Positions 52,252 through 63,794 of a stretch of DNA of 64,000 bases are shown in pieces. The notes under the pieces were generated by a model. The model searched no databases and had not been told where the DNA came from. It worked only from the letters and a program-made list of their open reading frames with translations. Origin of the DNA: Gemmatales bacterium (lineage in GTDB: Bacteria; Planctomycetota; Planctomycetia; Gemmatales; HRBIN36); contig JBEPZY010000001.1 in NCBI GenBank assembly GCA_041640595.1, forward strand, positions 672,001-736,000, written 5' to 3'. Position 1 is the stretch's first letter; every line of letters begins with the position of its first letter. Made by a program: the position numbers and the translations under genes.

Positions 52252-52685
52252 GATGAAGCTCGTCCCCTTACAACCGTTCCGGCTTATCCAATCCGTTCCC
52301 TCTAGTCAAGGATACCACCATCCGTCCGTGCGAGCCTCCCCATCAGCAGCCAAGTCCATTATTCCGATGCCGTCGCTTGCGACAGCCTTGCTTTGGCGGT
52401 ATCCTCGTAATGGACACTATATGACTTTTTCTCGGCAGAGTAAGCGCCAGGCTCAAATTTTGTTTGAGCGGGAATACCCGCAAAGCCTGCGATGTTTATC
52501 CAAATCCCAATAATATCCGGGAAAAACGCCTCGCCCCCTTGACGCTAGAGAACCAACCGGCTTTTCTCCGGTACCGAAGAAGGAGGCAGGTTTGGACAAA
52601 AGCGAACAATTGAGCTTCCCATAATTGCGACGGTTTGATACTGTCTGGCGGCTGTTCTTCCGACACGGCAAAAGGGAATGCTGAC

Positions 52686-53570
52686 ATGAAACGAATGATC
52701 GGCGTCGCTTGTGGAACAGTCGCCTGGTATAGCCTGGCCGTGGGTCAGTTCCTTACTCCGATTTGCAGCGGCAGTACCTGAGGTCCCGCACCAGGTCCTG
52801 CCGGCCGGGTGCCGGCTTCGGTCGTCCCTCCTGCTCCCGCCTATGGCAACCAGCAAGCGAATCCGGTACAAAGGCCGCGAGTTCTGCCGGCTTCCCAGGA
52901 TGCAGCCATGCCGTCAGCAATTCGCCGGCCCGTCGCCCATCCCAGCCCGTATTTGCCTCCCATGCCCGAAATGATGAACAATCCGCTCCGCTCCACGGTC
53001 GTGCAAACCGATCCTAACCGGGTTCATCCGGGTTCCAGCACCAGGAATGGCGTTCCGCCTTCTCCAGCGTCAACGCCAACGGCCGACAACGGTGTACGCT
53101 CGCATCCTCAACCGGTCGTTCGCGGCCGTCTTGACGAAGAGGCCTCGCCGCCACCTTCTGCAATTACCTTACCGCCGCCGGAAGTCCTTGGACTGCTTCC
53201 GCCCAGTTCCACTGTCGGCAACACGAACGACAGGAAGGGCAATTCACGTGTCCCTGATGCGAAACCGGATCAACTTTCTCGGGGAAATCCTGCTGCACGT
53301 TCCGCGTCAGAAAACGGCAACAAGGAAACGGGAATGAATCCTTCGCCCGACTTGCAATCGTTCGGATTGCGGCAGCGGTGTGAAAGGTTAGGAATCACGA
53401 GCTACCGATTGGAAAAAACGGAAGACGGACAATGGCGGTTTCTGTGTGTCCTGGCAGCTAGTTCCGGCCAGGCTCAACGCGAACTTGAAGCGGTTGCCGA
53501 TTCGCAAAGCGAGGCAGTTTCAGCTTTGCTCGAGCATCTTGAACGCACTACCACTACCGCAAACCGCTAA
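52686..53570 (+). CDS. Putative exported selenoprotein of unknown function (in-frame TGA at codon 32)
   Basis: ATG 52686 with AAGGGA RBS; MKRMIGVACGTVAWYSLAVGQFLTPICSGST-TGA(52779-52781)-GPAPGPAGRVPASVV... runs in frame into the 52809-53570 ORF; hairpin downstream; adjacent to selD. Confidence 0.6.
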
Positions 53571-53612: not shown

Positions 53613-54665
53613 TCAACACACGACCAGGCGGAAACTATCCGTCGCCGGCAACGCCTCGCCAACACGCGCGGCCAGGCAACCGCCTTCGCGCAACCGCGTT
53701 TCCAGTTCCGAAAGATTCTCCTCTGCTACCGCGATGAGTAACCCGCCTGAAGTTTGAGCGTCGTAAAAGATTTCCATGCGAATTCTGTCGGGCCGACCTT
53801 CGATACGCAGGCCGGGCTCAACGAACGCGCGATTCGTCCTGCTGGCGCGGGTGAAAAACTTCCGCTCGACCAGTTCCTCAACGCCAGGAAGTAAGGGTAA
53901 CCGCTCCAGATAAATGCGAAAAGTGCAGCCACTTGCCTCGGCCATTTCGTAAGCATGTCCGGCCAGGCCGAATCCCGTAATATCGGTCATCGCATGAGCC
54001 CGTGCCGCTTTGGCCGCTTCTGCCGCTTCGCGATTCAGTTGAATCATGCTGGAAATAGCTGCTTGCAACGTGGCTTCTGGACATTTGCCAGCTCGATGAG
54101 CCGTGGTAACGAACCCGGTGCCTAGCGGCTTTGTCAGTACCAGCACATCTCCAGGTCGGGCACCCGCATTGGTGATCACCTGAGAAGGATGAACGACGCC
54201 CAGAACTGATAATCCATACTTAATCTCGCGATCTCGAACCGTATGTCCGCCGATAACAACGCAGCCAGCTTCCCGGCATCGCTCAGCGCCGCCTTGCAGA
54301 ATCCTGGCAAGAATCTCCAGCGGTAACTCATCGTCCGGAAATCCCACCAGGTTCAGCGCGGTCTTCGGTGTTCCCCCCATGGCGTACACATCGCTCAGGG
54401 CATTCGCGGCGGCGATCTGCCCGTACACATAGGGGTCGTCCACAACCGGCGGGAAAAAGTCCAGCGTCTGCACCACTGCCAGATCATCACTGAGACGATA
54501 TACCCCTGCGTCGTCGGCTGTCGCGGTGCCCACGAGAACGTTGGAATCTTTGATTGTCGGCAACTCACGCAGCACCTGCGCGAGGCCCGATGCGGGCAGC
54601 TTGCCTGCTCAACCTGCGCAAGTTGCGTAATCCGTCAGCCGTTTTCTGCGACCAAAGTTCCACAT
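53613..54665 (-). CDS. selD: Selenide, water dikinase (selenophosphate synthetase), Sec-containing form
   Basis: MWNFGRRKRLTDYATCAG-TGA(54611-54609)-AGKLPASGL runs in frame into DDAGVY, DFFPPVVDDP, ANALSDVYAMGG, TDITGFGL, DAQTSGGLL; the TGA sits at the catalytic Cys/Sec position. Confidence 0.95.
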
Positions 54666-54821: not shown

Positions 54822-55061
54822 TTACAGGCCGGCACGCTTTTTCAGTTGCTCCACCACCCAGTTTTCGTCCGGGAATTGGCCAGTCTTGAGTTTCGAATAC
54901 AGGGTCTCGCCGTTTACCTGAATTTCAAAGCAACCTCCAGTTCCCGGCACCAGGGTGAACTCGCTGATTTTGTTTTTCAGGGCGGTGAGCACCTGGCTCG
55001 TCAAACTGACGGCCCGCGGCTCGTAGTTTCACTGGTAGCAGTATTCCAGTCGGATTTTCAT
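54822..55061 (-). CDS. Rdx family (SelW/SelT/SelH-like) selenoprotein, CxxU
   Basis: AAAGGAGG RBS; MKIRLEYCYQ-TGA(55031-55029)-NYEPRAVSL...LVPGTGGCFEIQVNGETLYSK..GQFP; 79 aa with readthrough. Confidence 0.93.
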
Positions 55062-62195: not shown

Positions 62196-63794
62196 ATGCT
62201 GAAGGTGCACGAAATGGTGGCGCACACGCACCAGGCTTGGCTCGTCGGGCTTCTTGCTTTCGTGGTAACCGGTGGTGTCGTAACAGGTAGTGATCCTGCT
62301 TCATCGCTGTTAGTGCAGCAAGCATTGCGGGAAGCCCGGCTCTGCTTGCAACGCGGCGAAGCGGGCACTGCTGTACGCGTGCTGGAACGTCAGCTACCTC
62401 ATATCAACGGCGATGCGGCGTACCTGGAACTCTTAGGGCAAGCCTACGAAGCCTACCTAATCGAGTTGCACCAGCTAGGCCGCACAGATCTGTTGCCGAC
62501 TTATTTAGACCGACTGGCCATTATCAATCCGTCCCGGGCAGGAAGCCTGCGCGAGCGGTGGCAAGTTTCTCCGGTCAACGAGCTGGCCGCTCATCGCATC
62601 GTGGCACGCGGTCGCATGGATGATGAACCACCCCTTAGTACCGTCCGTTTGGAAGATTTACTATCCTCGGCCGACGACGCCTTCACGCAGGGACATTATC
62701 CCCGAGCGCGACTCCTTTATTGGCGCGCTTATCACAGTGGACAGTCTCTGTCTCTGCTTCAGCGGCAGCGTTGGGCCTACTCCATTCTGCATGAGGTCTA
62801 TACTCGCTTGCAGCAACCAGCTTTGAACAATCCTTACTGGCCCGTCATCTATAGTGAAGCCCGACATGCTTTAGAGCTGGTGCCTGATTGGCCATTCGCC
62901 CAGCAAATTGTCAAGGAAGTAGAGCTAAGGCTTCACGGATACCGGCTTCCTATTCAGCACGAAGCTGCTCGTCGCGGAGAATGGTACGTAAGCCGTTCGA
63001 CACATTTTCGCATCTATCATCAGCAGGCGGGGCTAGCCGAGCGTGTGCTCGTACAGGCTGAACAAACGCTCTATGCAACCACCTGGTTCTGGTTTGGCGA
63101 ACTGGAACCACCGAACTGGACCAATCCATGCGACATTTACCTGCATCCTGATGGCCAGACATTCGCCCGAAGCACGGGTGTCCACCCCACCGCCTGTGGT
63201 TTCTCTACACTCACGCATGATAGCCACACTTCGGGCCGAATCGTCGCCAGACGTATAGACCTCAATGCCCAGGCCCCGGATTTGCTTATCCGCATTGTGC
63301 CACACGAAACGACACACATCGCCCTGGCTGGTCGGTTTGGCGACCGACCTTTGCCACGATGGGCCGATGAAGCACTGGCTATTCTGGCAGAGCCTGCCGA
63401 GTTCCGTCAGCATTACCGCGAGCAAGCACGCCGTGCATGCCAACAGAAGGTCGCTTTACCTATCGAAACGCTCATTACCCTGGAGGATTATCCTGCTCAG
63501 TTCCAACCCACTATCTTTTACGGGCAAAGTTTGCTTCTGATAGAATACTTGCTTCAACATAAAGGCAGGTGGAACTTAGTGCACTTCCTGGCAGAAGTGC
63601 GCCGCCTGGGTTTTGAGCCGGCGCTACGGCAATGTTATGGATTGGCATCCCTGGCAGAACTGGCCGAGAACGCCTGGCAACGCAACTTTTTGCCGCCACA
63701 AAATCAGATTTCTCAATTATCCGCGCCTTTTGCCCCTGGTGTGAATTCGAACGCTAAGTCGCAGACCTTGCATTATGGCTGGAATCGCCGCTAG
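62196..63794 (+). CDS. Exported zincin (peptidase MA-like) protein with N-terminal TPR-like helices
   Basis: PHETTH zinc motif, PLPRWADEALA, FYGQS; signal-like N-terminus. Confidence 0.8.
   Translation: MLKVHEMVAHTHQAWLVGLLAFVVTGGVVTGSDPASSLLVQQALREARLCLQRGEAGTAVRVLERQLPHINGDAAYLELLGQAYEAYLIELHQLGRTDLLPTYLDRLAIINPSRAGSLRERWQVSPVNELAAHRIVARGRMDDEPPLSTVRLEDLLSSADDAFTQGHYPRARLLYWRAYHSGQSLSLLQRQRWAYSILHEVYTRLQQPALNNPYWPVIYSEARHALELVPDWPFAQQIVKEVELRLHGYRLPIQHEAARRGEWYVSRSTHFRIYHQQAGLAERVLVQAEQTLYATTWFWFGELEPPNWTNPCDIYLHPDGQTFARSTGVHPTACGFSTLTHDSHTSGRIVARRIDLNAQAPDLLIRIVPHETTHIALAGRFGDRPLPRWADEALAILAEPAEFRQHYREQARRACQQKVALPIETLITLEDYPAQFQPTIFYGQSLLLIEYLLQHKGRWNLVHFLAEVRRLGFEPALRQCYGLASLAELAENAWQRNFLPPQNQISQLSAPFAPGVNSNAKSQTLHYGWNRR

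Follow-up and report, generated by a model that had tools for sequence, protein, structure and literature searches.

In bacterial selenoproteins of the Escherichia coli fdhF type, an in-frame UGA is followed 16-37 nt on by a hairpin with G in the first two loop positions, selA, selB, selC and selD are present, and a Cys homolog is found where the trait has been lost. The bacterial SECIS (bSECIS) model comprises a stem of 4-16 bp, a loop of 3-9 nt with G in its two initial positions, a spacing of 16-37 nt, and a stability of -7.5 kcal/mol or below (PMC13188914). Mobile redox tails are described from two other systems. FrnE (DsbA family, cd03024; Deinococcus DR_0659) carries a flexible terminal CXXXXC peptide, which according to the available part of PMC8945050 reaches the active site and helps to regenerate it. 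In class I and II ribonucleotide reductases (RNRs), disordered tails carry paired Cys residues (CXXXXC for E. coli), and in NrdA this tail is a swinging arm whose Cys pair shuttles electrons (bioRxiv 2022.04.23.489257, in the part of the text available). The gene considered here shares the fdhF-type features and, like FrnE and NrdA, encodes two chalcogen residues four apart on a flexible, disordered terminal arm. By sequence comparison it almost certainly represents a real selenoprotein family of unusual build that is widespread in the order Gemmatales.

The gene lies in a 64,000-nt stretch of Gemmatales DNA, in the following referred to as the window. Its features and those of its neighbours are:

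52671..52677, + strand: Shine-Dalgarno-like AAAGGGA, 8 nt 5' of ATG 52686 (from the sequence)
52686..53570, + strand: full coding sequence, 294 aa, with UGA almost certainly read as Sec at residue 32 (from the sequence and homologs)
52686..52745, + strand: predicted signal peptide, approximately residues 1-20 (basic N-region, moderate hydrophobic stretch, family leader alignment)
52764..52781, + strand: predicted C27-S-G-S-T-U32 pair, C-x4-U form (same form in G002, G003, G004, L227, and L228)
52779..52781, + strand: putative Sec-encoding TGA (homolog reading, variant check, N-terminal model, and 124-gene tally)
52782..53351, + strand: Pro-rich disordered arm, 20% Pro in residues 33-220 (model pLDDT mostly 45-60)
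52800..52816, + strand: SECIS-type hairpin, 6-bp stem, loop CGGGU, coding for G-R-V-P, in frame, 24 nt past the UGA, -12.1 kcal/mol
52950..52973, + strand: YLPPMPEM motif, common to members of the window's own family f1 (invariant in alignment A1)
53115..53141, + strand: VVRGRLDEE, the family's R[GA]Q-type motif (alignment)
53163..53195, + strand: ITLPPPEVLGL, the PxPExLG motif (retained, in doubled form, where members lack the C-terminal domain)
53352..53561, + strand: C-terminal alpha-beta-beta-beta-alpha domain, dsRBD/HPF-like (confident model, residues 223-292)
53613..54665, - strand: Sec-containing selD (ATG 54665, TGA 54609-54611), tail-to-tail neighbour, linked in close relatives only
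54822..55061, - strand: Rdx/SelW-like selenoprotein gene, CYQU, TGA 55029-55031, just beyond selD

The mechanically called open reading frame begins at GTG 52809, that is, past the TGA. As the original prediction had it, the frame extends back through TGA 52779-52781 to ATG 52686, giving a single frame of 294 codons that ends at TAA 53570; its sole TGA is residue 32, with Cys27 five residues ahead. Judged by the homologs, the true start of the gene is 52686: the anticipated ribosome-binding site is found ahead of it, and GGAGG-type sites precede the equivalent ATG in homologs. Three runs belonging to other studies (X3, X7, and X16) supply contigs that cross codon 52779-52781, with no variant there among the matches listed, and the stretch 52686-52821 differs by two synonymous changes only, likewise among the matches listed. 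These contigs, together with TGA in 124 of 124 homologous genes, rule out an assembly error or a private nonsense mutation. A contig from an RNA library covers the gene and also intergenic DNA, and promoter and terminator scans at the gene found nothing.

An initial search of 41 related genomes yielded seven with a match. TGA stands in the same place in G002 and G003 (C-x4-U) and in G008 and G011, which have the reversed order U-G-P-Q-G-C; G005 has Cys at the Sec position, in a C-P-G-G-A-C that aligns with the window pair, and the copy of G001 is truncated by its contig end. This last copy (L020 / G001:C216), which lacks its N-terminus, is from a selA-positive genome of genus g1 and clusters with the g3 Cys forms instead of with its congeners; transfer or binning could account for this. 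A model of the C-terminal domain matched 154 of 267 Gemmatales genomes and missed whole genera because the domain, and not the gene, has been lost there. A model of the first 50 residues matched 206 of the 252 genomes of the sister family and none of the 14 of the window's own, more divergent family; its 206 matches fall in 206 genomes, so that the gene is single copy in nearly all genomes matched. Of 136 loci read for the final tally, 124 genes remained after the exclusion of 12: the Cys gene of G005, one short form, two loci truncated at contig ends, two fusions with thioredoxin, and six paralogs that are lipoproteins. TGA is in frame in all 124, located 24-38 codons past a start and directly behind a signal-peptide-like leader, although the members are kin and not independent, and such counts therefore show breadth, not probability. 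Further into the coding sequence, six of the genes (G041, G065, G127, G137, G138, and G139) show a frameshift or a stretch of N. Exactly one TGA, and never TAA or TAG, was present in 150 of 150 rows of the N-terminal model, among 206 matches listed in part. The codons 5' of the TGA are kept in homologs as the signal-peptide leader, so that coding is conserved on both sides of the in-frame UGA, and both forms of conservation that had been expected of a Sec codon were encountered. The family is placed in Gemmatales and includes cultured members (Gemmata algarum JC673 and Gemmata sp. IIL30), which makes it directly testable.

The partner Cys is present in every one of the 124 genes, with 94 of the U-x4-C, 26 of the U-x5-C, and four of the C-x4-U type; it can stand after the Sec, before it or, in the metagenome contig L231, directly adjacent to it (C-U). 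The C-x4-U motif that had drawn attention to the gene is hence genuine in the window but a minority form, shared with G002, G003, and G004 and with the metagenome relatives L227 and L228, whereas U-x4-C or U-x5-C is the norm. Since order and spacing vary, conservation extends to the Se/S pair and its flexible peptide but to no fixed geometry, and the four arrangements on one scaffold constitute a natural series on the role of Sec in a redox pair. A parallel had also been drawn to CSSGWC in another exported protein of the window (open reading frame 60793). This C-x4-C is present, in a BBP7 porin, but C-x4-C is not clearly enriched among the exported proteins (24.7 versus 19.6 per 100,000 residues, for a crude set of 635 signal-peptide proteins of the genome); exported CxxGxC matches are mostly CxxGxCH and cytochrome-like, and CSSGWC was rejected as a family trait.

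The window hairpin agrees with the bacterial SECIS model in each of its four rules (PMC13188914, section 5). Taken alone, it is as stable as its shuffles (z -0.08), and a rival fold is preferred in a 60-nt context. Across the family, a hairpin built on the core GGY-NGKNN-GCC stands behind the UGA of 111 of 124 genes, always in frame and 21-39 nt downstream (three of the 111 at 39 nt), and a relaxed test raises this to 116 of 124; by neither test was a hairpin found in the other eight, seven of genus g91 and G050. Among 70 distinct hairpins, 92.7% of cells pair as compared to 80.9% when shuffled, two-sided changes amount to 74 cells versus 22.5, and slid registers pair at 25-51%. As the rows were chosen by the core motif, its three pairs are fixed by construction, and the evidence from covariation therefore lies in the two flanking pairs, each paired in 69 of 70 hairpins versus 55 and 52 in the shuffled sets, and in the loop-closing pair. 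The loop codon is furthermore fixed as DNA while its residue varies (GGT in 42 of 42 Gly, AGT in 21 of 21 Ser, and CGT in nine of 12 Arg codons); in gene bodies, T-ending codons make up 16%, 25%, and 16% for Gly, Ser, and Arg, respectively. In the window genome, an in-frame hairpin of the family type stands behind 17 of 109,528 TGA triplets.

The Sec machinery that the prediction presupposed is complete in the window genome (G000, 95% complete): selA and selB score above curated cut-offs, selD itself contains Sec, and the sole tRNA with a UCA anticodon detected is tRNA-Sec. selA was found in 244 of 267 Gemmatales genomes, which the family may help to explain. Conversely, G005 (94% complete) lacks selA, selB, and selD, and its match to the tRNA-Sec model scores like ordinary long tRNAs. 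The expected substitution of Cys for Sec where the Sec genes are absent is thus borne out, in a single lineage, as G005 is the only genome read with Cys at this position; the second Cys form, P0007, is a database representative. In the domain tree, which has few columns and is too short to root the order of the U/C motifs, the Cys forms cluster with the G004 gene, one of the C-x4-U type (91/97). G009, G166, G060, and G152 have neither selA nor selB, and no family member was found in them with the N-terminal and other queries used; weak matches to the C-terminal domain occur in G009 and G166. TGA forms are also present in selA-negative assemblies, namely G120, G132, G028, and eight others (59-88% complete). 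Because G120 and G132 retain selB and selD, and G028 selB, selA was presumably unassembled or missed in these three. All in all, the UGA bears every genomic mark of a Sec codon, and given the in-frame SECIS-type hairpin, the Sec genes, and the Cys found where these genes were lost, Sec is in all probability inserted here. The central claim of the original prediction is in this respect supported by sequence comparison.

The genomic surroundings are less uniform. The tail-to-tail Sec-containing selD and the nearby CxxU Rdx gene (CYQU) exist as described; the latter has a hairpin at 55000-55010 whose register matches that of the family SECIS in G008. The position beside selD recurs in the close relatives G003, L227, and L228, but in 20 other genomes no selD lies within approximately 7 kb, and a functional operon with selD and Rdx finds no support outside close relatives. 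In G002 (L156, G002:C60), selB-selA lies 6-8 kb from the Sec gene, a DUF1559 gene occupies the place that selD has in the window genome, and the upstream genes for a CBS protein and a 2-oxoacid oxidoreductase are retained. Overall, the neighbourhoods (n=20, 15-20 kb each) have little in common. A PilZ-domain gene or an ECF sigma factor was seen near the Sec gene in three of 21 neighbourhoods each (L168, L159, L169, and L118).

The leader of the window protein reaches an 11-residue hydropathy of up to 1.7 and forms a helix (residues 4-23) in the structure model. Signal peptidase I probably cuts it, by our inference after A-V-G, which would bring the Sec/Cys pair to within a few residues of the N-terminus of the mature protein, located in the periplasm or envelope. 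The leader might instead be an uncleaved membrane anchor, because the hydrophobic stretch is moderate and the homologous domains of other orders sit behind anchors and lack a Cys pair. A seleno-lipoprotein was rejected, as a [LVI][ASTVI][GAS] lipobox directly precedes U in none of 34 rows, and what stands ahead of U is variable (G, YP, D, Q, L, and T).

The model shows no structure from residue 24 to about 220, with a Gly/Pro-rich Sec peptide. In the window, the predicted tether with a compact C-terminal domain is thus recovered as a disordered Pro-rich arm ending in that domain, but the domain is dispensable in part of the family: in the Gemmata-like genera g7, g12, g14, and g17 it is absent, and the chain ends in a doubled PxPxxLG. 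This loss suggests that the tether docks via a short motif and not via the domain alone. On sequence grounds, the constant core comprises the leader, the Sec/Cys pair, the peptide encoded by the SECIS, the Pro-rich arm, and PxPExLG. The PxPExLG of the window gene is the top match of its own profile in this genome, and the profile search rules out a genome-wide sorting signal; nor does the motif belong to the domain fold, as it is modelled with low confidence in the compact model and does not pack on the domain. The domain is limited to the class Planctomycetia in the genomes searched. Of 400 genomes sampled across the phylum, 39, all of this class, have it behind membrane anchors; the 29 of these that were read contain neither a TGA nor, in the chain as predicted, a Cys pair. 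The loose R[GA]Q-type motif is not enriched among signal-peptide proteins (54 of 635 versus 140 of 2131). The window encodes a further exported protein (62196-63794, + strand) with VARGRMDDE, which resembles this motif, and no Pfam match.

By analogy with FrnE and the C-x4-C tails of RNRs, the protein may well be a periplasmic swinging-arm selenenylsulfide redox shuttle, the reading that we prefer. The pair would form the tip of a long Pro-rich arm and cycle between a selenenylsulfide ring and selenolate plus thiol. The other end would dock on an envelope partner via PxPExLG and, in most members, via the dsRBD-like domain, and the arm could take electrons from DsbD or a periplasmic thioredoxin and reduce or reshuffle the disulfides of envelope proteins. 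This reading draws on the freedom with which U and C change order and spacing, on the likeness to FrnE and RNR, and on two fusions with thioredoxin on the same tail. In these fusions (L117 of G048 and L125 of G225), an exported thioredoxin-like domain with C-F-W-C or C-Y-W-C replaces the Sec peptide, and the signal peptide and the tail module (RGQ/MQ..E, LPSPxELG, and the domain) are retained; both nest among Sec members in the domain tree (96/88). Other combinations exist in P0063, P0066, P0094, and P0128, which have an N-terminal leader, an internal C-x-x-G-V-C, and then the same domain. The redox shuttle is weakened because no redox partner is a conserved neighbour in the 20 neighbourhoods and because C-x4-C is not clearly enriched in the signal-peptide proteins of the genome. 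Moreover, as the protein has no catalytic domain of its own, the likeness to FrnE and RNR comes down to a six-residue motif and its setting.

A possible electron donor, DsbD, was found in 41 of 41 genomes searched. In the window genome (G000:C2 around 320003, + strand; L206:620-2845; DsbD_TM and Thioredoxin_7), its periplasmic thioredoxin domain reads T-U-T-N-C; one TGA lies inside the match, in the thioredoxin domain, in four of four genomes of the window's genus g1, and most other genomes have none. The DsbD matches of G008, G010, and G012 likewise contain one TGA. Two further selenoprotein candidates were noted in the window genome: a signal-peptide protein of ~428 aa with adjacent C-U and a family-type in-frame hairpin (G000:C8 around 50854, + strand; L205:1097-2383), without a match in Pfam or NCBIfam, and a membrane-anchored protein of 144 aa with C-U-N-L-N-C and a hairpin (G000:C3 around 463126, + strand; L207:1399-1833), without a match in the libraries scanned.

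With Sec taken as real, the N-terminal Se/S hook might instead bind soft metals (Cu(I), Ag, Hg, or As) in the periplasm and act in buffering, as a chaperone, or as the arm of a sensor. A free amine in proximity to selenolate and thiolate suits such metals by established chemistry, and several catalogued selenoproteins bind metals (PMC13188914, Table 1, in the part available), yet no metal-transport or resistance gene recurs in the 20 neighbourhoods, no conserved His or additional ligand is found near the pair, the order and spacing of U and C vary, and thioredoxin domains stand in for the peptide in the two fusions, so we consider this unlikely.

A lower probability still is assigned to a structural role, in which lasting Se-S or Se-Se bonds would cross-link copies with each other or with envelope proteins, the arm spanning the periplasm. 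The single copy in nearly all genomes matched (206 in 206) and the Pro-rich spacer would fit, as would the disulfide-stabilised, Pro/Cys-rich envelopes that have been reported, and in nine genomes read (G004, G008, G011, G049, G076, G083, G093, G144, and G187) the Sec gene converges on a neighbouring gene for a lipoprotein paralog that has this domain too. Against this, Sec is costly and UGA read-through usually limits the yield, which from established knowledge would fit a catalyst rather than a bulk part; the intramolecular partner Cys is always kept, and several Sec-less genomes are without any member found. The paralog itself (G000:C2:490549-490767, - strand; L073) combines the domain and a Pro-rich linker with lipoboxes, lacks Sec, and has no family match in the libraries. 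A complex model of the window domain with that of the paralog scored 0.03 versus a mark of 0.32 and counts neither way.

That the protein stores or donates selenium, or gives rise to a small processed peptide through cleavage at the R[GA]Q motif, is improbable: a short Sec peptide directly behind a signal peptide, a conserved R[GA]Q-x-x-[DE] that could serve as cut site, and a family near-universal where Sec genes are present would agree with it, but each chain has only one Sec, no gene for a modifying enzyme or protease recurs nearby, and the Sec-less G005 keeps a Cys version. Finally, we regard it as very improbable indeed that the UGA is a true stop between a leader peptide and a separate gene, or is read as Cys or Trp, for although databases call the downstream part as a gene and TGA forms occur in the selA-negative assemblies named above, the database starts are scattered, G120, G132, and G028 keep the other Sec genes mentioned, G005 carries an unbroken frame with Cys, at the DNA level the loop codon is fixed, the codon is TGA and never TAA or TAG in all 150 rows among the matches listed, and the only UCA-anticodon tRNA found is tRNA-Sec.

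Beyond the preferred redox shuttle, the leaders may point to regulation. Of the 124 family genes, 107 carry CANGGANG, the CsrA/RsmA consensus (PMC6692469, in the part available), at their start or close to it, as compared to 301 of 6800 random windows, and its hairpin stays in the leader as RNA when the start codon moves (e.g., L031:1144, L128-L131, and L235-L243); the site is missing from the window's own gene. csrA is present in five of five genomes tested, and the genomes of these leaders hold 2-7 csrA-like genes. It is conceivable, if on balance doubtful, that the family represents a near-universal and almost obligate Sec envelope protein, a free-standing selenenylsulfide arm without a catalytic fold, in which Sec and Cys can trade places, and that this arm forms the centre of a periplasmic disulfide system based on selenium, together with Sec-DsbD and further exported selenoproteins, is controlled by CsrA in most lineages, and is a main reason why about nine in ten Gemmatales genomes keep the Sec machinery. 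The family directs attention to selenium chemistry in the envelopes of aerobic planctomycetes, the structure of which has long been in question.

The family is apparently undescribed in the catalogues and literature checked, although it may have been reported elsewhere, as most subscription papers were outside the search. Sixty-three full-length members matched no family of NCBIfam 20.0 or Pfam at E 0.01. In the available parts of the sources, none of the 119 families in Table 1 of the review fits by motif or description and its text does not mention planctomycetes (PMC13188914), neither deep-Sep (PMC12013277) nor BSepDB (PMC13326102) names the family, BSepDB having scanned Gemmata genomes for reported families only, and PMC4807772 describes other planctomycete selenoproteins; the families of Haft and Tolstoy 2025 were compared through the review table and NCBIfam only. 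The impression that no described selenoprotein family is involved has thus held up. Among 149 database representatives, only the Cys form P0007 has family leader and pair, three more with a leader are of different architecture, and the remainder start downstream of the TGA; named members are annotated as hypothetical protein. The ESM Atlas returned unnamed Planctomycetota clusters only, and neither tblastn against 50,697 phage records nor the 120 viral pattern matches listed revealed a phage copy. A large selenoprotein family is hereby added that standard pipelines cut at the UGA and that searches for Cys/Sec pairs would miss because Cys forms hardly exist.

Compared with known folds, residues 223-292 resemble dsRBD and the HPF/RaiA/YcaO-N folds in their modelled alpha-beta-beta-beta-alpha topology (for the window model, the best match has Z 7.4 at rmsd 3.7 with 74 aligned; for a compact homolog, Z 8.3 at rmsd 3.8 with 71 aligned). 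These matches span Z 5-8.3 with many unrelated rows tied, and fold and sequence searches of solved structures found no specific relative (none by Foldseek at E 0.001). Unlike dsRBD and HPF, with which there is no sequence match, the Gemmatales domain is predicted outside the cytoplasm and is lost in part of the family. TsoB (NF045694, UxxxxU) has the same four-residue spacing but is a rhodanese/DsbD fusion, and the HesB-like proteins (UxGP) likewise have U near G-P but resemble Fe-S carriers; the HMMs of both matched none of the 63 members. FrnE differs in being cytoplasmic, with its own CXXC thioredoxin domain and a C-terminal, Cys-only tail, whereas the pair of the Gemmatales protein is N-terminal, predicted to be exported, and Sec-holding, with no catalytic domain attached. 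The RNRs are large cytoplasmic enzymes without Sec or signal peptide. The chalcogen pair on a disordered terminal arm is therefore shared with both systems, and the DsbA-thioredoxin or RNR catalytic domain is absent. Accordingly, the family belongs neither to FrnE nor to RNR nor to any selenoprotein family in the catalogues, and it breaks two usual patterns of known bacterial selenoproteins: its Sec lies outside any folded domain instead of in a folded active site, and its Cys homologs (G005 and P0007) are very rare, whereas Cys forms are as a rule far more abundant than those with Sec.
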